A DNA stretch of 64,000 nt, taken from the UHGV virus genome UHGV-0185973. One strand, 5' to 3'. Position numbers and translations under genes: made by a program. Position 1 is the first letter of the stretch. Each line of letters begins with the position of its first letter. The stretch comes from a virus. Of this stretch, positions 1,772 through 37,919 are shown piece after piece. Below the pieces are notes generated by a model. The model was not told the origin of the DNA, searched no databases, and saw nothing but the letters and a program-made list of their open reading frames with translations.

Positions 1772-2287
1772 ATGTATCTTGCAAACCTTAAGCGTTCTGC
1801 TGCAATGTCTGTTCTACGTCTTGACTTTGATGAGCGTCAAGAATTTATAGACTCCCACAAATATGACCCTTCAAACTCTAATCACATGGTTCTTTGGAAT
1901 CGTGGAAGCTTCCGTGACAAATCACTCTTCAGATACTACCCTCACTACACCATAGACAACCTATACGAGTACTGCGTTGTCAAGAACACTATTGCAGTAC
2001 TTAACAAACTATGCAGATACTCTGGCAAGCAAGCTTTTACATTAGGCCACCACAAACCCGTCACAAAGGGTGGTGAACATCATTGCTCTAACTGGTTTAT
2101 CCAGACTCAGCTTGATAACCAAAAGCAGGGAGAAACTATTCTGGACACCCCTAAGATGAACTATGAAGAACAAAAGGCTTATCTTAAAAATAATATGCCA
2201 CCAATGCTTGACAAGGAATATGCAGTTCTGGCAATATCTCTCTTGTTGAAGTTTGAGACAGTTTATAGGGCAACTTATCATGGCTAA
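1772..2287 (+). CDS. putative HNH endonuclease-like protein
   Basis: GGAGA RBS; motif GHHKPVTKGGEHHCSNW resembles the HNH core (H-H...P...GG...N); second half of motif not obvious. Confidence 0.4.
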   Translation: MYLANLKRSAAMSVLRLDFDERQEFIDSHKYDPSNSNHMVLWNRGSFRDKSLFRYYPHYTIDNLYEYCVVKNTIAVLNKLCRYSGKQAFTLGHHKPVTKGGEHHCSNWFIQTQLDNQKQGETILDTPKMNYEEQKAYLKNNMPPMLDKEYAVLAISLLLKFETVYRATYHG

Positions 2288-2558
2288 AGAGAAATGGGAA
2301 ATCTTACCATTAGTTAGTGACGGTGGAAATGGTTGTGAAATGTATATGATACGTGGTCACGTCCCAGAATCACTGGCTCTTGAAATGGTAGACCATTATA
2401 CAGATGGTTCTTACAAAGACTTCGGAGAACCAAATGTTAAACAGCAATGGGTTAAACCTGTACCAGATAGTACAGGAAACTGTAGTGTTCTTTACCACAC
2501 TGTAGACCCTGCAAAATGTAAATCTGCAATGGCAGTAACCAACGTAACTTTTGATTGA
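2280..2558 (+). CDS. hypothetical protein
   Basis: First ATG of track ORF 2253-2558 (which begins with TTG); overlaps upstream gene by 8 nt. Confidence 0.4.
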   Translation: MAKEKWEILPLVSDGGNGCEMYMIRGHVPESLALEMVDHYTDGSYKDFGEPNVKQQWVKPVPDSTGNCSVLYHTVDPAKCKSAMAVTNVTFD

Positions 2559-2568
2559 GAGAAATATT

Positions 2569-3450
2569 ATGAAAACCACTATTCGAGTTCTGCTAAGTTC
2601 TAATGCTAAAGGTAGCATTCAAGAAATCTTTAATATTATCCAATTTCCGTCTGGTGAGATTGGTGGCAACTTCTCTGAAGACTTTGTAGAATTTGCTGAA
2701 AGCTTTGCTGGTAAGATTGAAAATGTCATATTTACTGTGCAGGGTTATGATAAAGATACTTTGTTTGCCTTAGCTTTAGCTAAAGAGGCAGTTGACAAGC
2801 TCATCCCTCAAGGTTCAGCTATGAAGACTGTTCTGTTCGGGTTCTTACCAAATGCCCGTTATGACCGTCACATGTTTAAAGGTGATGCAGCAGCACTCAA
2901 AGTGTTTGCCAATCTGGTGAATGCAATGGAATTTGATGCAGTATGCTCTCTGGATGTTCATAGCAATGTCGCAGAAAACCTGTTTAAGTGCTTCCATTGC
3001 ATACCTCAGAAAGAGTTTGCGGCACACTTTGCAAGTGACCCACGTATTGATTACTTGGTAGCACCAGATGCAGGTGCAGCTAAGAAGACTGAAGAGGCTG
3101 CTAAAGAGGTTGAAAAGCCTTATATTACAATGGCTAAGGTTCGTAATCTGAAAACTGGTGAAATTACCGGTATGCGAATCCTTGACGATGTAGACTTAAC
3201 TGGTAAGACTGTCATGATTCTGGATGATATCTGTGATGGTGGTCGAACCTTCGTAGAGGCTGCAAAGTATCTTCGTGAAGCTGGAGCAGAACGTGTAGAA
3301 CTCTGTGTCACTCATGGGATTTTCTCTAAAGGTGTTGAAAATCTTCTTGACAATGGTATCGACCATATCTACACTACAAACTCATTAGGTGATGCTAAAG
3401 ACCGTGGTCTGAATAAGCACTCACAAGTAACTGTAGCAAACATTGAATAA
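2569..3450 (+). CDS. ribose-phosphate pyrophosphokinase-like protein (PRPP synthetase family; possibly ADPR-PP synthetase-like)
   Basis: GAGAGA RBS 6 nt before ATG 2569; C-terminal PRTase-type nucleotide-binding motif TVMILDDICDGGRT; about 293 aa. Confidence 0.7.
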   Translation: MKTTIRVLLSSNAKGSIQEIFNIIQFPSGEIGGNFSEDFVEFAESFAGKIENVIFTVQGYDKDTLFALALAKEAVDKLIPQGSAMKTVLFGFLPNARYDRHMFKGDAAALKVFANLVNAMEFDAVCSLDVHSNVAENLFKCFHCIPQKEFAAHFASDPRIDYLVAPDAGAAKKTEEAAKEVEKPYITMAKVRNLKTGEITGMRILDDVDLTGKTVMILDDICDGGRTFVEAAKYLREAGAERVELCVTHGIFSKGVENLLDNGIDHIYTTNSLGDAKDRGLNKHSQVTVANIE

Positions 3451-3460
3451 AAACTTTAAA

Positions 3461-3482
3461 GGGGCTGCATAGCCCCATTTTG
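3461..3482 (+). terminator. rho-independent terminator
   Basis: GGGGCT-gcat-AGCCCC hairpin followed by ATTTT. Confidence 0.6.
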
Positions 3483-3496
3483 AGAGAGATAAGAAG

Positions 3497-5314
3497 ATGA
3501 CTAAATCAATCTACGCAGTTCCAGCAGGTCTTAATGCAGATGCCTACAAAGCAGGTCACATCTACCAGTATCCAAGTGCTACACAGTATTTGATGCTGAA
3601 CCTTACACCTCGTGGTGATAAGTGGTTTAACAGCCCCTTAGAAGTTGACGGTGTAGTTGCTTTTGGTATCCAACGTTTTGTAAAAGACTATCTGGTAGAC
3701 CATTGGAATGCAACGTTCTTTGAGCGTGACAAGAAAGAAGCTGTTGATGAAATCTTAGAAGTTATGAATGGTGTACTTGGTGCAGATGCTATTGGTCGTG
3801 AGCATTGGGAAGAACTCCACGATTTAGGGTACTTACCCGTTGCTGTATATTCTGTTGAAGAAGGTATTGTAGTACCAATGCGTGTGCCAATGATTGTCTT
3901 CAAAAATACTGTTGAAGGTTTCCATTGGGTAGCTGGTTATCTGGAAGATGCTTTCTCTGCTGAAATTTGGAAAGCTTGTACCATTGCAACTATTGCGCTG
4001 CACTACAAACGTATCTGTAAGAATTGGGCTGATGTAACCTGTGATAATGACTTCCACTTACCTTGGCAGTGTCATGATTTTGCAATGCGTGGTATGTCTG
4101 GCTTCACAGATGATGCTTTTAATGCTGTAGGTCACTTGACCAGCTTTAAAGGTACTGACAGCTTCCCTGCTGTGTATACTGCTAAACGTGCTTATGGTCA
4201 GTTTATGACAATCAGTGATATTGGCAACTCTGTACCAGCAACTGAACACTCTGTGATGTGTGCAAACATTTCATGGAATAGTACATCTAAAGAAGTTAGT
4301 GATTGGCATCTTATGCAATCTGATAACCTGCTAGATGCAATGCGTTGGCGTGGCGAGGTAGACACTTTCAAACGTCTGTTAGTTGATGTTTATCCAACTG
4401 GTATTGCAAGTGTTGTTTCAGATACTTATAACTTCTGGCGTACTGTTACACAGATTCTACCAGAATTACGCGAAGTCATCCTGAACCGTGATGGTAAGTT
4501 GGTTATCCGTCCAGACTCTGGAGACCCTGTTCACATTGTAACTGGCTACAAAGCTATTGAGTGGGAAACTGCTAAGTCAATGTTCTATAAGCATATGAAG
4601 AGTCTTGCACCTGATAATACTCATCTGCATGATGCAATCTTAAATTGTGAGATGGGTGATATGGGCTTTGGCTTTGCTGCTTGGTTAGTCTCAGAAGGCT
4701 ATGAGATGACAGTTGACAAAGAAGACTTTGACCATGCTGATACAGTTAACCTGATTGCCGCTCAAAAGACTGGACAGTTTACTGTTAAGCGTATGCTGAC
4801 AGCAGAGATTGACGGAGCTATCAAAACTCTGTACAACATCTTTGGAGGCCACGTAAACAGCAAAGGTTACAAAGTACTGGATGAGCATATTGGCTTAATC
4901 TACGGAGATTCTATCACTCTTGAACGTGCTGATGAGATTCTTAAGCGTCTTGCTGAGAAAGGTTTTGCAAGCTCTAACGTAGTGTTTGGCGTAGGTTCTT
5001 ACACTTATCAGTATCTGACTCGTGATACCTTTGCATTTGCTGTTAAGGCTACACTTGCTCAAATGGATGGTGAAGAAATTATGCTGGCAAAAGACCCTAA
5101 AACTGACAGTGGTCTGAAGAAGTCTGCATTTGGTGGTGTAGTTCCAATGTGGGACGGTGATAAACTGGAAGCTGTAGACGGCTTAGGTTTTGCAGAGTTT
5201 GAAGGTGTCATTGATAACCCTCAGTGCGCACTGAAGCTTGTCTTCTGTGACTCACAACCATATGGTTACGTTAACCTTCGTGATGTACGAAAAGTTATTG
5301 ACAACCAGATTTAA
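3497..5314 (+). CDS. nadV: nicotinamide phosphoribosyltransferase-like protein (NadV/Nampt family; possibly Namat-like)
   Basis: 605-aa ORF; called NadV/Nampt-family from overall recognition and adjacency to the Prs-like gene; no single signature motif quoted. Confidence 0.65.
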   Translation: MTKSIYAVPAGLNADAYKAGHIYQYPSATQYLMLNLTPRGDKWFNSPLEVDGVVAFGIQRFVKDYLVDHWNATFFERDKKEAVDEILEVMNGVLGADAIGREHWEELHDLGYLPVAVYSVEEGIVVPMRVPMIVFKNTVEGFHWVAGYLEDAFSAEIWKACTIATIALHYKRICKNWADVTCDNDFHLPWQCHDFAMRGMSGFTDDAFNAVGHLTSFKGTDSFPAVYTAKRAYGQFMTISDIGNSVPATEHSVMCANISWNSTSKEVSDWHLMQSDNLLDAMRWRGEVDTFKRLLVDVYPTGIASVVSDTYNFWRTVTQILPELREVILNRDGKLVIRPDSGDPVHIVTGYKAIEWETAKSMFYKHMKSLAPDNTHLHDAILNCEMGDMGFGFAAWLVSEGYEMTVDKEDFDHADTVNLIAAQKTGQFTVKRMLTAEIDGAIKTLYNIFGGHVNSKGYKVLDEHIGLIYGDSITLERADEILKRLAEKGFASSNVVFGVGSYTYQYLTRDTFAFAVKATLAQMDGEEIMLAKDPKTDSGLKKSAFGGVVPMWDGDKLEAVDGLGFAEFEGVIDNPQCALKLVFCDSQPYGYVNLRDVRKVIDNQI

Positions 5315-5327
5315 GTAAGTATTATAA

Positions 5328-5352
5328 GAGGCTCCTACGGGAGCCTTTTTAA
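5328..5352 (+). terminator. rho-independent terminator (GGCTCC/GGAGCC family)
   Basis: GGCTCC-tacg-GGAGCC hairpin followed by TTTTT. Confidence 0.7.
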
Positions 5353-5367
5353 TTTCTGGAGAATGTT

Positions 5368-5589
5368 ATGAGATTTAATACAGATTTATTTTACACAGAC
5401 AGCACTGGATTCTTTGGTTGGTCTCCAGCAGCAGCTTGGCAGTTATGGTTTTCAGAAGATTACAAAGAGGATAGGCAAGTCTTTGTAATGGACTACAAGT
5501 TCCCTGTAAAACCAACTAAACGTCAGGTTAGAAAGCTTCGTAGAGAGTTTCGTAAAGTTTGCAAAGGGGTTATTAGCTATGAAAATTAA
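5368..5589 (+). CDS. hypothetical protein
   Basis: ORF with GGAG RBS upstream. Confidence 0.45.
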   Translation: MRFNTDLFYTDSTGFFGWSPAAAWQLWFSEDYKEDRQVFVMDYKFPVKPTKRQVRKLRREFRKVCKGVISYEN

Positions 5590-5914
5590 GCAAATGAATA
5601 TCAACATTATCTTAGAAGAACGCTGGGAAAACATCAAACGTACTGAAGATGGTCACAAGTTCATTACTAAGATTATGCAGGAAGCACAGACTCAACTTGC
5701 TTCTGAGATTCATACAACGATTACTTTGAAGGTTTACATCAAAGGTCTGCCACAAAACCATCAAGAAGCACTTGACCTGTTCTGTGAGCACTTCTACAAT
5801 CCGAACAAAAGAATCCTTGAAGATAATTTTGCAGTCTCTTCAAGTATCGTTCATGACAGAAGTTTTATCCTGTTTAAAACTGTAGGGGAAAAGGTATGCA
5901 AGGTTATTGGTTAG
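5579..5914 (+). CDS. hypothetical protein
   Basis: ORF overlapping the upstream gene by 11 nt; no recognisable motif. Confidence 0.4.
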   Translation: MKIKQMNINIILEERWENIKRTEDGHKFITKIMQEAQTQLASEIHTTITLKVYIKGLPQNHQEALDLFCEHFYNPNKRILEDNFAVSSSIVHDRSFILFKTVGEKVCKVIG

Positions 5915-11563: not shown

Positions 11564-12448
11564 ATGAAGCCAATGTTCAAATATCTTGGTGGTAAAACAA
11601 GAATACTAAGAGAGTATGAGCGTTTAAATGTTTTTCCAAGCCACTGTAAAAACTTCTATGATTTGTTTTCAGGTGGAGGTTCAGTCGCTATTTGGGCTTA
11701 TAACAGATACCCAGAAGCAAAAATATTTATTAATGAGATAAACAAACACATTATAGGTCTTTACACAACTTTCAGAAATGACTATGAAAACTTCATGGAA
11801 GAATTTGAGTGCTTGTCAAAGAGGTACTTAGCATTACCTATGCAGGAAGAATATGCTGTGAAAGGTCAGCGACATAAACGTTTACGCTATAAAATGTATT
11901 ACAGTGTAAGGGAGGAACTCCTTTCACTTGGTGAAACAGGTATATATGACTATAGGTACTATGCAAGACAATTTTTCCTTCAAAAACTAAGTTTTGGTGG
12001 TGTATGGCAGACCACTAAAGAAATGAAAGGTCACTACGCAACACCTTGTGGGTATTTGCTGGAAGAAGAGATTTTCTTTACAAAAACTAAAGAGTCACTA
12101 TCCGAGTTCTACAGTTTTATCACCGATAAAAGGGTGATACTAAGTAGTGAGCCTTATGATATGGTTGACATAAAACATGGAGAAGGTACAGTTATTTACT
12201 GTGACCCCCCATATATCAACACCAACCAGAAATATGGTGCAAAGTTTGACATTGAAATGTCTGTAAAACTATGTGAAAATATGATTTCTTGGGGAGAGTT
12301 AGGTTCTAAAGTTTTGATGTCAAACTCTCAGTGGGATGGATGGACAAACTTAATCCCTGAAAATTTTAACTTGACAGAGGTTAGCCATTCATACACAATA
12401 CATGCACAGAGAAGCAAGGGTGTTAGCGAAGTAATTATTCATAACTAA
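11564..12448 (+). CDS. dam: DNA N6-adenine methyltransferase (Dam-like)
   Basis: AAGGAG RBS; SAM-binding motif DLFSGGGSV and catalytic IYCDPPY in the order typical of Dam-type enzymes. Confidence 0.75.
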   Translation: MKPMFKYLGGKTRILREYERLNVFPSHCKNFYDLFSGGGSVAIWAYNRYPEAKIFINEINKHIIGLYTTFRNDYENFMEEFECLSKRYLALPMQEEYAVKGQRHKRLRYKMYYSVREELLSLGETGIYDYRYYARQFFLQKLSFGGVWQTTKEMKGHYATPCGYLLEEEIFFTKTKESLSEFYSFITDKRVILSSEPYDMVDIKHGEGTVIYCDPPYINTNQKYGAKFDIEMSVKLCENMISWGELGSKVLMSNSQWDGWTNLIPENFNLTEVSHSYTIHAQRSKGVSEVIIHN

Positions 12449-12459
12449 GGTATCAAACC

Positions 12460-13272
12460 ATGACAAACAGTGTAAATGTAGCTCTAAACGGTAAGATTGT
12501 TAAAATGCAGACTAAGATTATCAGCGTAGAAGACTTTATTAATGAGAAACGCTACAAGGAAAATCCACGTCAACGAAATACATTAAAACGACTTAAGAGC
12601 AAACACCTTAATGGTGATGTATCACCAGACCAAACAGTTGTCCATATTGCTAAATTCGGTAGTTCACTGTTTATTATTGACGGCCACTCACGCAGAGAGG
12701 CATGGAAAGTTGGGAACCTTACACGACCAGAAGGATTGATTGCAGTTATATACCATGTAAACTCTATACTAGATGTTACAGATTTGTACACTCACTTTGA
12801 CTCTGAGTTAGCAAGAGAGAAACCTTCAGAAGTCTATTACGGAAACATGAAGATGATTTCCTTCAATCCAAAGTCAGAGTTGATGAAAGCATCTTGGGCT
12901 ACTGCTATTAAGTATGTTGCTGCATACTATGGGGTGCAACAGGTTTCTAACACTGAAACAGTCAATCACCTTGATGACTTTAAAAATGAGATGGAGCAAA
13001 TTGACTCTCTTGAAGTACAGCTCAAAGGTGTAGTAAACGCAAAACGTAAGTATTCCTCTGGTATTCGTGCAGCAATGCTAATTACATTACGGCTATATGG
13101 TGATGCTGCATTCTCCTTCTGGGAGGACTATAATGACTACTGCGAAGGTATGTCTAACAAATATGTTACAGAGGCATACCAACTAGCATTGCAAGCTGGT
13201 CGTGGAGCACAGGCTGACAAGCTATTGATGAATCAAGTAATTTCACTTGTCAACTACTTCAGCCAAGAGTAG
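12460..13272 (+). CDS. ParB/Srx-fold (DGQHR-like) domain protein
   Basis: Motif LFIIDGHSRREAW resembles the [IV]DGxxR signature of ParB-like nuclease / DGQHR domains. Confidence 0.4.
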   Translation: MTNSVNVALNGKIVKMQTKIISVEDFINEKRYKENPRQRNTLKRLKSKHLNGDVSPDQTVVHIAKFGSSLFIIDGHSRREAWKVGNLTRPEGLIAVIYHVNSILDVTDLYTHFDSELAREKPSEVYYGNMKMISFNPKSELMKASWATAIKYVAAYYGVQQVSNTETVNHLDDFKNEMEQIDSLEVQLKGVVNAKRKYSSGIRAAMLITLRLYGDAAFSFWEDYNDYCEGMSNKYVTEAYQLALQAGRGAQADKLLMNQVISLVNYFSQE

Positions 13273-15519: not shown

Positions 15520-16311
15520 ATGGGTATTGTAAAAATTATCAAAGGGGATATCTTTGAAGCTTTTGACAATCAGAAGTTTGATATTATTGGTCACGGTTGC
15601 AACTGCATGAATCTTATGGGTGCAGGGATTGCAGCAACAATTGCAAAACGTTACCCAAAAGCTTATGAGACTGACCAAGAAGTCTACAACCTGTTTGGTA
15701 AAGACCACAAACCAGTAGCTTTAATGCTTGGAAATCTTAGTGTAGCGCGTTTTAAGCAGGGTCGTATTGCTAACCTATACACTCAGTTAGTTACTGGTAA
15801 AGATGCCCGTTACAATGCTTTAGAGGCTGCTTTAGAGCGACTAAACAACTACTGCAAAGTCAATCAGCTTAAGAAGGTTGGCTTACCAATGATAGGTGCA
15901 GGGATTGGTGGTCTTGATGGTATGGCTGTGCTATCTATCATTAACCAGACCATGAAGGATGTTGATGTTTACATGTACATCTATGAAGATAAGATGTTCA
16001 AGGAACTGACTAATCCTAAGTCTGGTTGGGAGAATCACAGTGAACCACAATTCTTCGATGGTGTTGCAAAGGTTGAAGAAGATGTAGTTACCCTGTGGGT
16101 GAAGCGTAAAGGGAAGGTACATAAAAGTAACCCTCCGGTTGAGAAGTATTCTCTAAGTAACGCTCTAGTTACCCACCCGTTGGCAGGGCATTGTATGAGA
16201 GGTGTAACATTTGGTGATGATGCTAATGTGTATATCCTTGCAAGCAACGACAAAGATGCTGAGGAAGCACTTTCCTGTGAAGTGATTAAGTTTGTAGAAG
16301 CACGTAACTAG
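15520..16311 (+). CDS. macrodomain protein (TARG1/DarG-like) with C-terminal extension
   Basis: N-terminus IKGDIFEA...FDIIGHGCNCMNLMGAGIAATIAKRYP matches the TARG1/OARD1 pattern (H-C-x-x-D-C-x-MGAGIA); about 100 aa of unassigned C-terminal sequence. Confidence 0.6.
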   Translation: MGIVKIIKGDIFEAFDNQKFDIIGHGCNCMNLMGAGIAATIAKRYPKAYETDQEVYNLFGKDHKPVALMLGNLSVARFKQGRIANLYTQLVTGKDARYNALEAALERLNNYCKVNQLKKVGLPMIGAGIGGLDGMAVLSIINQTMKDVDVYMYIYEDKMFKELTNPKSGWENHSEPQFFDGVAKVEEDVVTLWVKRKGKVHKSNPPVEKYSLSNALVTHPLAGHCMRGVTFGDDANVYILASNDKDAEEALSCEVIKFVEARN

Positions 16312-34487: not shown

Positions 34488-34835
34488 ATGAAGACTTGTA
34501 TTAGGTGCAAACTTAGCAAGGATGAAAATGATTTCTACATGAAAGATGGTAGGAGAACTCATTCATACTGTAAAAAGTGTGTTAATGAGCAAACCATAGA
34601 AAGACAAAGAGCACTTAAACTTTCAGCTGTTGAGTACAAAGGTGGGGTTTGTCATGATTGTGGTAAAAGGTATCATCCAGCAGTGTATGACTTCCATCAT
34701 TTGAATCCTTCAGAGAAAGATTTTAACATTGGTCATAGAAAAAGTCTTAAGTTCTCTCAGGAGCTAAAGAACGAACTTGACAAATGTGTTTTGCTATGTT
34801 CAAATTGCCATAGGGTAAGACATGCAAAGTATTAG
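34488..34835 (+). CDS. HNH homing endonuclease
   Basis: CxxC zinc pairs (CIRC, CKKC, CHDC) and HNH core DFHHLNPSEKDFNIGHRK...LLCSNCHRVRH. Track ORF starts at 34443 inside the tRNA-like gene; ATG 34488 chosen. Confidence 0.75.
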   Translation: MKTCIRCKLSKDENDFYMKDGRRTHSYCKKCVNEQTIERQRALKLSAVEYKGGVCHDCGKRYHPAVYDFHHLNPSEKDFNIGHRKSLKFSQELKNELDKCVLLCSNCHRVRHAKY

Positions 34836-34972
34836 TTAGCAGATTGCTTAGACGACCTTAACGGGTCTCCTGTAAGGAGGTGGTCTGTATCTCATGTTTC
34901 CAGAGCATGTAAAAATATTCTGAGAAGGGGCTTTACAGTGTTGTGATAATACGGTAAGCTTCGAATTATAAT

Positions 34973-35055
34973 ATGGGACGATGTTAAGACTCTAAGGCAT
35001 GAGCAACGGCTTCCAACACCGTTTCAAAGGGGTTCAACTCCTCCGTCCCATGCCA
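34973..35055 (+). tRNA. atypical tRNA-like gene (anticodon CCA, Trp-like; oversized D region)
   Basis: Perfect acceptor ATGGGAC/GTCCCAT, loop TTCCAAC, T-loop TTCAACT, CCA; 26 nt between acceptor and anticodon stem (normal about 19). Confidence 0.45.
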
Positions 35056-35068
35056 AAGTCTTATTAGG

Positions 35069-35158
35069 GGTAGGTAGCGGCTAATGGTAGCCAAACTGTC
35101 TTGAAAACAGTTGCCACTGTAGAGATACGGTGAGGGTTCGACTCCTTTACTTACCGCC
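35069..35158 (+). tRNA. tRNA-Ser (anticodon TGA), class II
   Basis: Anticodon arm ACTGT-CTTGAAA-ACAGT, long variable arm, acceptor GGTAGGT/ACTTACC. Confidence 0.7.
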
Positions 35159-35406
35159 TAATAAGATTTAAAGCCGCGCTTCGTTCGGATGTTGCGTTAG
35201 GTTTCACTTCGTGTATTGTCGTACACGATGTTGAGAAAGCACCTAGTAGGTGTCACGGAGAAGAGATAGCATCAAGCTCTCCAAAGGTTCTAGTCACCGG
35301 ATTAAACAAGACTATGCAAAGACTGATTAGGTCTTTTTAGATAACTTCTGAGGCAAACTATACCATTGTTGCTTTGGGTCTTGGAAGTTCTCTACAAAGA
35401 TTTAAT

Positions 35407-35483
35407 GCACCTATAGCCCAATTGGAAGAGGCAGCAGACTTAGAATCTGTTCAGTGTGAGTTCGACTCTCTCTAGGTGTACCA
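35407..35483 (+). tRNA. class I tRNA with anticodon TAG (Leu codon CUA; isotype uncertain)
   Basis: Anticodon arm GCAGA-CTTAGAA-TCTGT, 5-nt variable loop, D-loop AATTGGAAGA, discriminator A, CCA. Confidence 0.6.
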
Positions 35484-35490
35484 AATTAAT

Positions 35491-35566
35491 GCAGGTGTAG
35501 CAAAATGGTTATGCGGCTGACTCTTAATCAGTAAGACGATGGGTTCAATTCCCTCCACCTGTACCA
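35491..35566 (+). tRNA. tRNA-Lys (anticodon CTT)
   Basis: Anticodon arm GCTGA-CTCTTAA-TCAGT; T-arm nearly identical to the TTT Lys tRNA; CCA. Confidence 0.65.
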
Positions 35567-35572
35567 AACATT

Positions 35573-35648
35573 GGGGATGTAGTTTACATGGTTAAAACAT
35601 AAGTTTTGCAAACTTAAGTACAGGGTTCAATTCCATGCTTCTCCACCA
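35573..35648 (+). tRNA. tRNA-Ala (anticodon TGC)
   Basis: Anticodon arm TAAGT-TTTGCAA-ACTTA, T-loop TTCAATT, CCA. Confidence 0.75.
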
Positions 35649-35654
35649 ATTAGT

Positions 35655-35729
35655 GCATCCATAGTTTAAACGGGAAAATTACAGTCTTCCAAACTGAGGT
35701 TGAGGGTTCGATTCCCTCTGGATGCTCCA
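35655..35729 (+). tRNA. tRNA-Gly (anticodon TCC)
   Basis: Loop CTTCCAA, T-arm GAGGGTTCGATTCCCTC, acceptor GCATCCA/TGGATGC, CCA. Confidence 0.75.
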
Positions 35730-35735
35730 ATTCAT

Positions 35736-35811
35736 GCTCCTATCGTATAACTGGCTATTACGGTTGTCTTGTAAGCAACTTATCAGGGTTCGAATCCTTG
35801 TGGGAGCACCA
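35736..35811 (+). tRNA. tRNA-Thr (anticodon TGT)
   Basis: Anticodon arm GTTGT-CTTGTAA-GCAAC, T-arm CAGGGTTCGAATCCTTG, CCA. Confidence 0.75.
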
Positions 35812-35905
35812 ATTTGAGGTCAAGTGAAAGACCGCTTGAGTCAACTGAAGACCGTAACAAATTCCACGGAGTTGAGTTAGCGGCACAACTTCAGACCTCT
35901 TTAAA
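35812..35905 (+). ncRNA. candidate structured small RNA between tRNAs
   Basis: About 90 nt with long-range complementarity (GAGGTC 35816-35821 with GACCTC 35893-35898; CTGAAG with CTTCAG) and no ORF or tRNA fold. Confidence 0.3.
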
Positions 35906-35980
35906 GCTCGCTTAGTTTATATGGTAAAGCCCCATCCTTACAAGTTGGTGAAGAAGGTTCAAGTCCTTCAGCGAGTACCA
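35906..35980 (+). tRNA. tRNA-Val (anticodon TAC)
   Basis: Loop CTTACAA, T-arm GAAGGTTCAAGTCCTTC, acceptor GCTCGCT/AGCGAGT, CCA. Confidence 0.75.
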
Positions 35981-35981
35981 A

Positions 35982-36059
35982 GTTCCAGTATCCCAATTGG
36001 CAGAGGATGCAAGCTCAAACCTTGTATTAGTGACGGTTCGAATCCGTCTTGGAACACCA
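35982..36059 (+). tRNA. class I tRNA with anticodon CAA (Leu codon UUG; isotype uncertain)
   Basis: Anticodon arm GCAAG-CTCAAAC-CTTGT, 6-nt variable region, T-arm GACGGTTCGAATCCGTC, discriminator A, CCA. Confidence 0.6.
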
Positions 36060-36076
36060 AATTTTAGGAGATTCCT

Positions 36077-36289
36077 ATGAAGCCTTATGGTAGACACGGT
36101 AAAGTTGAAATTGCAAGTTGTGGTTGCTGTGCTTCTCACGATGGTGAAGAAGATTACTACAAGTGGCGTACAGACCATCGTAGACGCTTTCTCAGAAGAG
36201 ATAAGAAGAAAGCTAGACAGGAATCTCGAAAAGATATTGCAGAATTAGTTCAAATGGATAGAGCAGCAACCTACGAAGTTGTTAGTTAG
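36077..36289 (+). CDS. small hypothetical protein; 3' end overlaps tRNA-Arg
   Basis: AGGAG RBS 6 nt before ATG; Cys-rich N-terminus (CGCC), basic middle; last about 50 nt overlap tRNA-Arg(ACG). Confidence 0.3.
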   Translation: MKPYGRHGKVEIASCGCCASHDGEEDYYKWRTDHRRRFLRRDKKKARQESRKDIAELVQMDRAATYEVVS

Positions 36290-36312
36290 GGGTTCGAATC
36301 CCTTATTCTGCA
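36239..36312 (+). tRNA. tRNA-Arg (anticodon ACG)
   Basis: D-arm GTTCAAATGGATAGAGC, anticodon arm GCAAC-CTACGAA-GTTGT, T-arm AGGGGTTCGAATCCCTT, acceptor GCAGAAT/ATTCTGC; CCA not encoded. Confidence 0.7.
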
Positions 36313-36333
36313 CAAATTTTAGAAGGTAATTAT

Positions 36334-36561
36334 ATGCGTAAACTCATTATTGAAAGGCATAAAGATGCTGACAAGATTGAAACAACACAAGTTGGGGACA
36401 CTGACTTCATTCTTGTAGGTTGGAAATGTGACCCAATAGCAGCTATGAAGGTTGTTCATGGTTTTGCAGGAATTGAATTTAATCAAATCATATTTGAAAC
36501 GCTATTACCAGAAAATCAGGATACGTGTAATAACGCATATATCCTGACAAGAGTTCGTTAG
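36334..36561 (+). CDS. small hypothetical protein within tRNA cluster
   Basis: 75-aa ORF between tRNA genes. Confidence 0.4.
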   Translation: MRKLIIERHKDADKIETTQVGDTDFILVGWKCDPIAAMKVVHGFAGIEFNQIIFETLLPENQDTCNNAYILTRVR

Positions 36562-36635
36562 GGGATTAGTTTACAAGGTTAAAACCTCGGTCTTTGAAAT
36601 CGAAGAAGTTGGTTCAATTCCAACATCCCCCGCCA
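36560..36635 (+). tRNA. tRNA-Gln (anticodon TTG)
   Basis: Anticodon arm TCGGT-CTTTGAA-ATCGA, T-loop TTCAATT, CCA. Confidence 0.7.
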
Positions 36636-36637
36636 AT

Positions 36638-36716
36638 GCTCCATTACTCCAATTGGCAGAGAGGCCAGACTTAAAATCTGTGTTATGTATCGGTTCGAAT
36701 CCGATATGGAGTACCA
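36638..36716 (+). tRNA. class I tRNA with anticodon TAA (Leu codon UUA; isotype uncertain)
   Basis: Anticodon arm CCAGA-CTTAAAA-TCTGT (near-identical to the TAG tRNA), 7-nt variable region, T-arm ATCGGTTCGAATCCGAT, discriminator A, CCA. Confidence 0.6.
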
Positions 36717-36722
36717 AATATT

Positions 36723-36798
36723 AGCAGTGTAGCATAACTGGCAATGCTCCAGCCTCTGAAGCTGAAAGATTAAGGTTCAAATCCTTACACTGCTGCCA
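36723..36798 (+). tRNA. tRNA-Gln (anticodon CTG)
   Basis: Loop CTCTGAA, T-arm TAAGGTTCAAATCCTTA, acceptor AGCAGTG/CACTGCT, CCA. Confidence 0.7.
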
Positions 36799-36829
36799 CT
36801 TCTAAGGGTTCTTACGAGAGTCCTTAAAT

Positions 36830-36906
36830 GTGGCCTTATCATAAATGGATAATGACCCATGCTGTGAACATGGTCTATACGGGTTCGATTCCCGTAGGTC
36901 ACCCCA
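36830..36906 (+). tRNA. tRNA-His (anticodon GTG)
   Basis: Anticodon arm CCATG-CTGTGAA-CATGG, T-arm ACGGGTTCGATTCCCGT, CCA. Confidence 0.75.
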
Positions 36907-36913
36907 ATTTTAA

Positions 36914-36990
36914 TAGCTCAATTAGCTTATATGGTTAAAGCGCGTGTCTGAAAAACATGAGAACAGGGTTCAAATCCCGATGGGCTACCA
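36914..36990 (+). tRNA. tRNA-Phe (anticodon GAA)
   Basis: Anticodon arm CGTGT-CTGAAAA-ACATG, T-loop TTCAAAT, CCA; exact 5' boundary uncertain by 1-2 nt. Confidence 0.65.
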
Positions 36991-37006
36991 ACTTTATAGG
37001 TGCATA

Positions 37007-37741
37007 ATGAAAGAGATGACAGGACAAGGTAAAGAGATTTTCAATCTCCTTAAATCCGGTAACGGGTTCTCTAACCCTCTTATTACTGGTGCAGCAGTTC
37101 TTGGTGGTACAGTTGCTGCTTCTCAGTCATTAATCACTTCAATTAGTTCTGTATCAGACCCAGCTACCCAGCAAATCCTTATTGCTGCTGGCTTGACAAC
37201 TGCCTTACTAAGCAGCTTTACAACAAGCCTTGGTAGCACCACTTCAACGACAACTACTTTAACTGACTATGGACAGAAGTCTGTAGATGAGTTTTCACAG
37301 CGTATGCAGGTAGCCAAAGGATACTCTAATGTTATGGGAGCAGCGGGTGAACAAGTTGGATGTACACCGTTTAGTGGAATCATGGGAGTTGCTACTGAAT
37401 ACGGTAACAAGGCTATGGATTTGATTAACACCTCCATAGATGCCGTAAACAGCGTTCTAAGCGACTTACAGGATGCAATTGATAAAGGACTAGCAACCAT
37501 CTCTGACCTCGCTACACAAGCTGTTACAGCGATTAATGAAGGTATGGCAAAGATTACTGCCTACGCTAATGAAGTGGCTCAGATGATTGCAGACGAAGCA
37601 GCAATGATTGCAGAGTATCTAAAAACCAATATTAATGGTTTCCTTGCAAATGTTTTACCAGATTGGTTTAACGATGATTGTAAGACGGGTGTAATTGATA
37701 CAATTGCAACTCCAGAGATGAAAGAAGCTCTAAACAAATAA
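37007..37741 (+). CDS. hypothetical Ser/Thr-rich protein
   Basis: Start moved to ATG 37007 (AGGTG RBS) because track ORF 36944 begins inside tRNA-Phe. Confidence 0.45.
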   Translation: MKEMTGQGKEIFNLLKSGNGFSNPLITGAAVLGGTVAASQSLITSISSVSDPATQQILIAAGLTTALLSSFTTSLGSTTSTTTTLTDYGQKSVDEFSQRMQVAKGYSNVMGAAGEQVGCTPFSGIMGVATEYGNKAMDLINTSIDAVNSVLSDLQDAIDKGLATISDLATQAVTAINEGMAKITAYANEVAQMIADEAAMIAEYLKTNINGFLANVLPDWFNDDCKTGVIDTIATPEMKEALNK

Positions 37742-37744
37742 TTT

Positions 37745-37837
37745 GGAAGATTAACCCTAAAAGGTAAGGGAGCAGTTTGCTAAACTGCCAGTAGCTGAGA
37801 AATTGGTGTACCAGTTCAAGTCTGGTATCTTCCTCCA
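37745..37837 (+). tRNA. tRNA-Ser (anticodon GCT), class II
   Basis: Acceptor GGAAGAT/ATCTTCC, anticodon arm GCAGT-TTGCTAA-ACTGC, long variable arm, CCA. Confidence 0.75.
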
Positions 37838-37843
37838 AATTTT

Positions 37844-37919
37844 GCATTGGTGTCAGAAATGGATATGTACCTGTCTGCAAAACAGGTTTATGAGGGTTCG
37901 AGTCCCTTCCAATGCTCCA
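37844..37919 (+). tRNA. tRNA-Cys (anticodon GCA)
   Basis: Anticodon arm CCTGT-CTGCAAA-ACAGG, T-arm GAGGGTTCGAGTCCCTT, acceptor GCATTGG/CCAATGC, CCA. Confidence 0.75.

Follow-up and report, generated by a model that had tools for sequence, protein, structure and literature searches.

A probable NARP1 operon encoding predicted Adps and Namat enzymes in an uncultured Mooglevirus-like phage

Two adjacent genes at positions 2569–5314 of the window (the whole 64-kb stretch of viral DNA that was analysed) very probably form, judging from their sequences, an operon for NAD+ reconstitution pathway 1 (NARP1), and the pair is already explained by the known two-enzyme form of that pathway (Adps and Namat). 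The earlier note had proposed either a NARP1-type pathway or classical salvage, in which a Prs-like and a NadV-like protein would produce NMN. The former is borne out by orthology to gp79 and gp80 of coliphage Bas63 (82% identity over 293/293 aa and 76% over 605 aa, respectively), by the same gene order and neighbors, by the signatures of Adps and Namat and by the fact that no NMNAT was found in the window, while the latter does not agree with the Bas63 orthology, the clamp residues described below and the missing NMNAT. Since the NARP1 features are present and no NMNAT, Nudix, PnuC/NadR or RyR gene was found in the window, we take the NARP1 reading to be the right one and classical salvage not. 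For these exact proteins, both the enzymatic activities and the phenotype against defences are predicted from relatives: the in vivo phenotype from the 76–82% identical orthologs, and the in vitro chemistry from the 33–46% identical enzymes of phages SpβL1 and ICP1.

Gene order and intergenic signals

The genome carrying the pair is that of an uncultured Mooglevirus-like phage of the Ounavirinae, known as a metagenomic contig. Along its entire length, the window is collinear with the genome of Bas63 (NrdG, small ORFs, adps, namat, rIIA and rIIB), the phage in which NARP1 was first discovered (discovery paper). Bas63 also belongs to the Ounavirinae, as a Felixounavirus, while the window genome is of the Mooglevirus type; gene order and flanking genes are shared, with the difference that the gene downstream is not the same (DUF7279 here). 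The two ORFs described in the earlier note are present at the coordinates given, both on the plus strand (Table 1); they are adjacent and 46 bp apart. The pair follows directly on an nrd cluster (nrdG at 396–881) and lies within a stretch of genes for nucleotide metabolism (Silverhawkium map); genes for thymidylate synthase and DHFR are present in the phage as well. The four flanking ORFs were considered as hidden pathway members and rejected, as their matches are restricted to PHROGs of unknown function, DUF7279 and a weak HNH-like hit: only 5368–5589 has a Pfam match (DUF7279 alone), and the HNH-like match is in 1772–2287.

The suggestion that each gene has its own terminator holds for namat, which is followed by a strong one (10-bp stem at 5326–5349 with five GC pairs, then a T run; dG −17.5 kcal/mol, z −3.6), but not for adps. 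The hairpin in the spacer after adps (6-bp GC stem at 3461–3476; dG −12.8 kcal/mol, z −3.1) folds better than shuffled sequences, but was not called by the terminator scan; it is placed just 5' of the namat ribosome-binding site. In phage Moogle, the adps–namat spacer is occupied by a gene for an HNH homing endonuclease.

Table 1 Features of the predicted NARP1 locus and of a candidate accessory gene (window coordinates).
Feature	Position	Strand	Basis or remark
Flanking ORF	1772..2287		
Flanking ORF	2280..2558		
adps, predicted ADP-ribose pyrophosphokinase (ADPR-PP synthetase), 293 aa, Prs/PRPS fold	2569..3450	+	Pfam, PHROGs, orthology
Adps Lys190 codon, catalytic β-hairpin lysine	3136..3138	+	alignment to K185 of ICP1 Adps and K162 of SpβL1 Adps
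Adps PP-loop region VMILDDICDGGRT, aa 215–227, followed by Phe228	3211..3249	+	alignment to ICP1 Adps
Intergenic hairpin GGGGCT-GCAT-AGCCCC, then ATTTTG	3461..3482	+	inside the 46-bp adps–namat spacer
namat, predicted nicotinamide ADP-ribose transferase, 605 aa, Nampt fold	3497..5314	+	Pfam, PHROGs, orthology, AF2 model
Namat selectivity-clamp loop (SCL), aa 38–50, PRGDKWFNSPLEV, with Lys42-Trp43	3608..3646	+	alignment
Namat His251 codon (ATEHSVM), Nampt-core catalytic histidine	4247..4249	+	alignment
Namat insertion 1, helical, aa ~258–286	4268..4354	+	absent in SpβL1 Namat, shorter in Bas63
Namat insertion 2, compact α/β subdomain, aa ~351–439	4547..4813	+	AF2 model
Namat selectivity-clamp helix motif (SCH) GSYTYQYLTRD, aa 500–510	4994..5026	+	alignment
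Intrinsic terminator closing the unit	5326..5354	+	terminator scan and RNA fold
Flanking ORF	5368..5589		
Flanking ORF	5579..5914		
Candidate accessory Macro-domain gene, 263 aa, Poa1p/Adpp-like	15520..16311	+	PF01661, E 5e-7; phrog_335 'phosphatase'

The Adps homolog

The adps ORF opens at a TTG codon (2551), but the ATG at 2569 (MKTTIRV...) is taken as the right start, since the Bas63, Silverhawkium and Moogle orthologs begin at the corresponding point. The protein matches PF00156 and PF14572 in Pfam and phrog_619 in PHROGs (E 2e-97). It is 90% identical to Silverhawkium gp6, which has been placed in the Adps clade (Osterman Table S1), and 33% identical to the Adps of SpβL1, while among solved Prs proteins the best match scores only 66 bits. 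The Adps clade was itself defined with Bas63 Adps among the query sequences. A Namat homolog is found close by (within ten genes) for 97% of Adps-clade genes, and the pair in the window likewise consists of an Adps-clade gene with a Namat homolog next to it. The orthologs from Silverhawkium, Moogle and Michonne are listed as Adps-clade or 'Adps-associated' Namat proteins in the tables of the discovery paper. A PADLOC search returned only generic PRTase-domain matches for Adps (ShosT, PsyrT), which reflect the shared fold and not membership in a defence system, and none for Namat.

The structures of the Adps from Vibrio phage ICP1 (apo, substrate and product forms; NAR 2026 gkag901) allow the active site to be compared residue by residue. 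K190, within 'MAKVRNLKTGEI', aligns with both K185 of ICP1 and K162 of SpβL1, and the mutations K185A and K162A abolish the formation of ADPR-PP or NAD+. The PRTase motif quoted in the earlier note was recovered; here, the PP loop reads DDICDGGRTF, and D219, D220, I221, C222, D223 and F228 correspond to D212, D213, I214, C215, D216 and F221 of ICP1, where the loop binds the ATP donor. Together with F26, R97, H131, D167 and K190, these residues match the ligand-contact residues of the ICP1 enzyme. The set forming the acceptor groove and the remodelled PP loop (R87, H121, D161, D212, D213, C215–S220 and F221) is kept as R97, H131, D167, D219, D220, C222–T227 and F228, with partial deviations. 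The likeness covers the catalytic Lys, the acceptor residues Arg, His, Asp and DD, the 'DDICD' PP loop, the Phe lid and a C-terminus that is short compared to PRPS, while the N-terminal 60 aa align poorly, the loop tail (residues 225–227) is GRT rather than AAS, and Phe92, which contacts the adenine in ICP1, aligns with Met102, the nearest Phe (103) being shifted by one. In the sequence alignment, canonical PRPP synthetases run on for some 18–20 residues beyond the C-terminus of the window protein: its residue 290 (of 293) pairs with position 296 of the 317-residue B. subtilis Prs, and its residue 275 with position 277 of human PRPS1 chains of 318–326 residues. This early end is consistent with the loss of the PRPS α11–α12 module.

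The Namat homolog and its insertions

Namat scores above the cut-off for PF04095 and just under it for PF18127 (24.9 vs 25 bits), and matches phrog_448 (E 3e-196). It is 93% identical to Silverhawkium gp5 and 46% identical to the Namat of SpβL1, the closest solved sequence (9w5w/9w5x, E 1e-124). The best fold match of its AF2 model (pLDDT 90.9) is also 9w5x (TMt 0.94), and the two Namat structures outrank H. ducreyi NadV, Xanthomonas Nampt and human NAMPT by both sequence and fold. The catalytic core of the SpβL1 enzyme (D13, Y15, F189, R192, D215, R306, D308 and the catalytic His) is kept throughout, as D15, Y17, F195, R198, D221, R338, D340 and H251. His251 is invariant in an alignment of 39 sequences and aligns with the histidine of the SpβL1 ATEHSVM motif, and R338 is the equivalent of R306, the mutation of which inactivates SpβL1 Namat. 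All residues that contact NAM, NMN or AMP in the SpβL1 crystal structure are either conserved or replaced in the same way as in Bas63.

An adenine 'selectivity clamp' is among the published features that set Namat apart. In the SCL, the residue stacking on adenine is either an Arg at position 3, or a Lys or Tyr followed by the stacking residue, Bas63 being the example given for the latter. R40 of SpβL1, which acts directly, aligns with K42, which is followed by W43 as in Bas63 Namat (the SCL, DKWF, is identical in the two); the alignment suggests that K42-W43 would provide the adenine stacking. In the SCH, Y502 and Y506 align with F392 and Y396 of SpβL1, and a single Φ position (Φ3) differs from Bas63 gp80 (Leu instead of Met), Asn or Val being more common there. 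True Nampt and NadV enzymes read GMGGALLQKVDRD (Xanthomonas) and GVGAQTYQRNTRD (H. ducreyi) at the SCH, and lack the aromatic positions.

The Bacillus phage SPbetaL1 (SpβL1) system (Adps WIT26982, Namat WIT26983; 9W5W/9W5X, NAR 2026 gkaf1492) shares with the pair its two-gene order and its catalytic and clamp residues, but its NARP1 genes overlap, whereas those in the window are separated by the spacer and its hairpin, and its Namat (491 aa) has neither of two insertions. That the protein is over 100 aa longer than usual, as had been pointed out, is confirmed by the length of SpβL1 Namat and by those of H. ducreyi NadV (~495 aa) and the Xanthomonas Nampt chain (482 aa). The extra ~110 aa correspond to the two insertions, both of which occur in the functional Bas63 Namat (593 aa, with insertion 1 shorter by 11 aa than here); the added length characterizes the Ounavirinae-type Namat clade as a whole and is no oddity of one gene. 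Insertion 1 is modelled as helices (pLDDT 79–93), and insertion 2 as a confident subdomain of ~90 aa, for which a fold search gave no match. An intein or homing element as the origin of the extra length was rejected, given that the insertions are short, that they are conserved throughout the clade without breaking the frame, and that the model folds them confidently into the rest of the protein; the homing endonuclease of Moogle, which sits between the genes and outside Namat, also disfavors it. The ~90-aa subdomain may have a function of its own, such as docking to Adps for passing on the labile ADPR-PP, or regulation.

Proposed pathway, alternatives and significance

Host defences (SIR2-HerA, DSR1/2, Thoeris, SEFIR, etc.) would cleave NAD+ to ADP-ribose and nicotinamide. 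Adps, with its PRPS-like fold, would then transfer the β,γ-pyrophosphate of ATP to the 1'' hydroxyl of the terminal ribose of ADP-ribose, yielding ADPR-pyrophosphate (ADPR-PP), and Namat, by Nampt-type chemistry, would replace the pyrophosphate with nicotinamide to give NAD+ directly, so that neither an NMN intermediate nor an NMNAT would be needed. The adenine-binding clamp (Lys42/Trp43 of the SCL and Tyr502/Tyr506 of the SCH) would favor ADPR-PP over PRPP. The corresponding data come from the relatives. Both SpβL1 and ICP1 Adps pyrophosphorylate ADP-ribose and not ribose-5-phosphate, and SpβL1 Namat prefers ADPR-PP over PRPP, the same being implied in vivo for Bas63 Namat. Deletion of gp79-80 from Bas63 lowers its plating efficiency on SIR2-HerA cells ~20-fold, ADPR-PP is seen in vivo only when the operon and the defence system are present together, and rescue by the operon is independent of host pncC and nadR (ΔpncC ΔnadR host).

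The names given to both proteins in all GenBank annotations, 'ribose-phosphate pyrophosphokinase' and 'nicotinamide phosphoribosyltransferase', agree with Pfam and would rather indicate classical nicotinamide salvage, in which a true PRPP synthetase and a true NadV/Nampt produce NMN, and NAD+ synthesis is finished by a host (NadR/NadD) or phage NMNAT, as in the NARP2-type phage KVP40. Namat enzymes supplied with PRPP do make NMN in vitro, about half as fast as human Nampt, and a degree of classical activity is therefore possible. However, the Bas63 orthologs rescue in the ΔpncC ΔnadR host and produce ADPR-PP, the canonical assay with ribose-5-phosphate and ATP yields no product with SpβL1 Adps, and NAD+ was all that SpβL1 Namat made when offered both donors; for the orthologs, classical salvage is largely refuted already. 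In the window itself, Namat has the ADPR-PP clamp which Nampt and NadV lack, and gene 1 ends before the PRPS C-terminal module. NARP2 (KVP40 Nampt with Nmnat/Nudix) and the NadV/Nampt enzymes (H. ducreyi 9KE8, Xanthomonas 7YQO, human NAMPT) share the Nampt fold and the nicotinamide-transfer chemistry, but use PRPP as substrate, have an SCH without aromatics and are partnered by an NMNAT rather than a Prs-like gene. Nmnat also occurs in 94% of phages with a KVP40-type Nampt, while the relatives of the present pair are labelled 'Adps-associated'.

The search for an NMNAT suggested in the earlier note found none within the 64-kb window, ~24 kb of the genome lying outside it. The non-structural ORFs were searched against Pfam concatenated, which is less sensitive than searching single proteins, and 10 ORFs then singly: neither NMNAT (PF01467), NUDIX nor PnuC/NadR was found among them, and the RyR domain (PF02026; NARP1 with RyDEP) had no match in the flanking or other non-structural ORFs. 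'Serglycin' matches in the concatenated scan were discarded as artefacts of the GS linkers. The structural-region ORFs all map to structural genes of Bas63, the complete genome of which has no NMNAT annotation. No NMNAT or Nudix gene thus accompanies the pair among the window ORFs, unlike in NARP2, and classical salvage is very unlikely.

General metabolic boosting, by which the pair would raise PRPP and NAD+ for phage nucleotide metabolism with no role against defence, would fit the position right after the nrd cluster in a phage with thymidylate synthase and DHFR. We nevertheless regard it as extremely unlikely, given that Adps does not make PRPP, that ADPR-PP appears in Bas63 only with an NAD+-depleting system, with a deletion phenotype on defence-carrying hosts, and that NARP1 needs ADP-ribose, while NARP2 makes NAD+ whether it is depleted or not (aRES preprint).

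The NARP1 pathway may be extended in trans by the Macro-domain gene (Table 1), located ~10.2 kb downstream on the same strand, ~18 genes away. Its product shares 65% identity with Bas63_0095, 36% with the Macro protein of Pseudomonas phage PN09 that is linked to NARP1 (E 3e-20) and 27% with the Adpp of Vibrio phage Gary, a validated enzyme (E 3e-15), but also matches the DarG profile (E 3e-15). In the NARP1-AP of Gary (Adps-Adpp-Namat; bioRxiv 10.64898/2026.01.28.702374), a Poa1p-like Macro protein is likewise encoded; the gene described here lies outside the operon, has an extra C-terminal region of ~100 aa and is also DarG-like, and its Adpp role is putative. NARP1-AP calls for a Poa1p-like Macro gene within two genes of NARP1, and none of the four flanking ORFs here has a Macro match; being unlinked, the present gene would be missed by the published ±2-gene search. 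The literature on Felixounavirus Macro proteins yielded nothing relevant. A possible, though on balance doubtful, scenario is a dispersed NARP1-AP in Ounavirinae-type phages, in which the unlinked Macro protein would dephosphorylate the ADPR-1''-phosphate produced by RES-type (aRES) defences, thereby supplying Adps with ADP-ribose, and/or a separate function of the Namat subdomain.

Over 850 phage genomes with NARP1 are known, and the pair brings in another uncultured Mooglevirus-like phage; it also confirms that the standard annotations are misleading for this clade. With regard to phage therapy and host-range prediction, it suggests that this phage should resist defences which cleave NAD+ to ADP-ribose and nicotinamide (SIR2-HerA, DSR, Thoeris, SEFIR). 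The fold-orphan subdomain of Namat and the unlinked Adpp-like Macro gene, which is conserved with Bas63, could refine both searches for NARP1 and the understanding of the pathway.

Orthology and synteny of the gene pair

The earlier note had described adjacent Prs-like and NadV-like genes, which is borne out by the reading frames and their Pfam matches (see the table) and by PHROGs, where gene 1 is assigned to 'ribose-phosphate pyrophosphokinase' (E 2e-97) and gene 2 to 'nicotinamide phosphoribosyl transferase' (E 3e-196). The frame of gene 1 begins at a TTG (2551), the ATG at 2569 being the start common to all annotated orthologues, and the PRTase motif quoted in that note is located at aa 215-227. 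NARP1, the two-enzyme pathway (Adps and Namat) rebuilding NAD+ from ADP-ribose and nicotinamide, was discovered in Escherichia phage JohannRWettstein, or Bas63 (Osterman et al.). On SIR2-HerA cells, deletion of its genes 79-80 lowered plating efficiency ~20-fold, more NAD+ was retained when the operon was present, ADPR-pyrophosphate was seen only when operon and defence system were both present, and the rescue did not depend on host pncC or nadR (Osterman et al.). The gene 1 protein is 82% identical to Bas63 gp79 (Adps) over a gap-free alignment of 293/293 aa, and the gene 2 protein is 76% identical to gp80 (Namat). Identities to the pair of the Mooglevirus relative Silverhawkium are 90% and 93%, respectively; the Silverhawkium, Moogle and Michonne proteins have been tabulated as Adps-clade and 'Adps-associated' Namat (Osterman et al.).

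Features of the NARP1 region and of other loci in the window
Position	Strand	Feature	Evidence
1772-2287	+	ORF upstream of adps	phrog_3500 (weak HNH-like match)
2280-2558	+	ORF upstream of adps	phrog_4726
2569-3450	+	gene 1 (adps), 293 aa	PF00156 + PF14572 (Prs family)
3497-5314	+	gene 2 (namat), 605 aa	PF04095 (NAPRTase/Nampt); PF18127 just sub-threshold
4547-4813	+	Namat insertion 2 (aa ~351-439), ~90-aa α/β subdomain within Nampt fold	confident model
5298-5325	+	best sigma-70-like match of the region	TTGACA-16-TATTAT, 11/12
5326-5349	+	strong terminator 3' of gene 2	terminator scan, RNA folding
11564-12448	+	D12-class N6-adenine DNA methyltransferase	PF02086, E 2e-20
12460-13272	+	270-aa ORF adjoining methyltransferase gene	
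15520-16311	+	Macro-domain protein, 263 aa	PF01661; phrog_335 'phosphatase'
31044-32459	+	471-aa protein just 5' of tRNA cluster	DUF2828 + DUF7788; Bas63 counterpart 84% identical
32625-37919	+	23 tRNA genes in a cluster, with small ORFs between them	
34443-34835		Cys/His-rich 130-aa ORF in tRNA cluster	no Bas63 match or Pfam hit

The NARP1 region was matched in 256 phage records, all from the Felix O1 group, with Mooglevirus members as the best matches (Silverhawkium 89%, Moogle 88%). Over its structural half, the window shares 95% identity with Escherichia phage pEC-M719-6WT.1, and an identical 605-aa gene 2 protein is present on an ENA metagenome scaffold. An ORF-level comparison shows the window to be collinear with the Bas63 genome, running from 49.9 kb past the genome end and on to 25.8 kb, in the order nrdG, small ORFs, gene 1 and gene 2, rIIA, rIIB and so on. 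The methyltransferase gene and its adjoining ORF look like an inserted two-gene block, since neither has a counterpart in Bas63, and possibly serve an anti-restriction role. The Cys/His-rich ORF in the tRNA cluster is possibly a homing-endonuclease-like gene.

Each gene had been credited with its own terminator, which holds for gene 2 and is overstated for gene 1: in the 46-bp adps-namat spacer, a 6-bp GC hairpin (dG -12.8, z -3.1) precedes ATTTTG, and the terminator scan did not pass it. In Moogle (1351-1842) and phiSUSP1 this spacer is filled by an HNH homing endonuclease, so adps and namat tolerate separation. Split Namat ORFs are tabulated for some Salmonella phages and for Vibrio phage ICP1 (Osterman et al.), and PHROGs holds half-length Namat families (phrog_16547 and phrog_15800). 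The two ORFs directly 5' of adps are both kept in Bas63 (genes 0077-0078) and may be co-transcribed with NARP1, as the scan found no terminator-like site between those at 1732-1753 and 5326-5349. The sigma-70-like match overlaps the final namat codons and abuts the terminator hairpin, a pairing which may start the next transcription unit, from 5368 onward.

Residue signatures of Adps and Namat

In the crystal structure of Namat from Bacillus phage SpβL1, an adenine 'selectivity clamp' separates Namat from Nampt; it consists of a helix (SCH, GS-X-Φ-X-Φ-X-Φ-TRD, where X is aromatic) and a variable loop (SCL) supplying a further stacking residue (NAR 2026 gkaf1492). All ligand-contact residues of SpβL1 Namat were mapped by alignment onto the window Namat. 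The catalytic core is conserved (D15, Y17, F195, R198, D221, A248, H251, R338 and D340), and the AMP/NMN phosphate contacts (G470, D471, S472, G500 and S501) are either retained or replaced conservatively. The SCH reads GSYTYQYLTRD, where Y502 and Y506 occupy the stacking positions, whereas the corresponding stretch of genuine Nampt/NadV enzymes is GMGGALLQKVDRD (Xanthomonas) or GVGAQTYQRNTRD (H. ducreyi NadV). The SCL is K42-W43, the same as in Bas63, the cited example of the 'Lys then stacking residue' mode (NAR 2026 gkaf1492). Among solved relatives, SpβL1 Namat scores best by sequence (420 bits), followed by HdNadV (338), Xanthomonas Nampt (175) and human NAMPT (135). An AlphaFold2 model built from a 39-sequence alignment (pLDDT 90.9, pTM 0.90) has Namat 9w5x as its best structural match (TMt 0.94).

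For Adps, the ICP1 structure places F18, R87, F92, H121, D161, D212 and D213 in the acceptor groove, with a PP loop (C215-S220) remodelled for ATP donor binding, a Phe lid and K185 as the catalytic lysine; loss of the PRPS C-terminal α11-α12 module is a signature of the family (September 2026, NAR 2026 gkag901). The aligned counterparts of the ICP1 features in the window protein are F26, R97, H131, D167, D219, D220, I221, C222, D223, T227, F228 and K190, the last of which also corresponds to SpβL1 K162, a residue whose substitution abolishes pathway function. There are two minor departures: F92 is replaced by Met102, with Phe103 adjacent, and the tail of the PP loop is GRT instead of AAS. The protein ends ~18-20 residues short of the B. 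subtilis Prs C-terminus, which is consistent with the Adps truncation. A sequence search of solved structures returned no Adps among its hits, the best Prs scoring only 66 bits.

Insertions in the Namat

The NadV-like protein had been noted as over 100 aa longer than typical NadV, and it indeed exceeds both SpβL1 Namat and typical NadV by ~110 aa, owing to a helical insertion (aa ~258-286) and to insertion 2. Both also occur in Bas63 Namat (593 aa), where the first is 11 aa shorter, and are hence compatible with in vivo function. Insertion 2 is found in 255/255 Felix-O1-group phage hits, and both are also seen in more remote homologues of 560-610 aa whose identity falls to 44-46%, among them those of Yersinia phage P778, Pectobacterium phage Arno162 and Salmonella phage SB18. 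The insertion 2 subdomain, present in every Namat of 560-610 aa but not in SpβL1 Namat, has no structural match in PDB or BFVD. Both insertions are missing from enterobacterial chromosomal homologues of 496 aa, which still have the Namat SCH motif (GSFTYQYNTRD or GSYTYQYNTRD in all five aligned: P0065, P0071, P0074, P0079 and P0104). These proteins (P0065-P0120, from Klebsiella, Phytobacter, Kosakonia and Kluyvera) are annotated 'nicotinate phosphoribosyltransferase'; judging from their sequences, they are probably NARP1 Namats of bacteria and not NadV.

Other pathway genes and the proposed mechanism

The earlier note had left two readings, NARP1 or classical salvage through NMN, the latter needing an NMNAT. 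The non-structural ORFs of the window were scanned against Pfam in concatenated form, the neighbours of the pair singly, and gave no hit for CTP_transf_like/NMNAT, NUDIX, PnuC/NadR (NARP3) or RyR-domain (RyDEP) families. The structural-region ORFs all correspond to Bas63 structural genes, NMNAT is absent from the complete Bas63 annotation, and the four ORFs flanking adps-namat belong to families of unknown function in Pfam and PHROGs. The classical-salvage reading is not supported.

The Macro gene lies on the same strand, ~10.2 kb (~18 genes) 3' of the pair, and is kept in Bas63 (gene 0095, 65% identity). The first ~158 aa of its product are 27% identical (E 3e-15) to Vibrio phage Gary Adpp, a validated ADPR-1''-phosphate phosphatase which makes NARP1 into NARP1-AP and defeats aRES defence (bioRxiv 10.64898/2026.01.28.702374); with the Macro protein linked to NARP1 in Pseudomonas phage PN09 they share 36% identity (E 3e-20). 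The best solved relatives are TARG1/OARD1 and yeast Poa1p, at only ~26 bits, and the extra C-terminal region of ~100 aa has no Pfam hit. An Adpp role is a lead only, kept outside the NARP1 finding; countering ADP-ribosylating defences is an equally plausible role, since the protein hits the DarG macrodomain profile as well (E 3e-15). The published NARP1-AP survey covered only +/-2 genes around NARP1, and would therefore have missed this gene.

Orthology, residue conservation and synteny with Bas63 support the NARP1 alternative for the window pair. The mechanism is the published one, with activity and phenotype as expected from the relatives: Adps would move pyrophosphate from ATP onto ADP-ribose, and Namat would replace the pyrophosphate with nicotinamide to give NAD+, the pathway feeding on breakdown products made by NAD+-depleting defences. 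The window NARP1 is a further example within the phage subfamily of its discovery, and only two elements go beyond published knowledge, the Namat subdomain with no fold match and the Adpp-like Macro gene located away from the pair.
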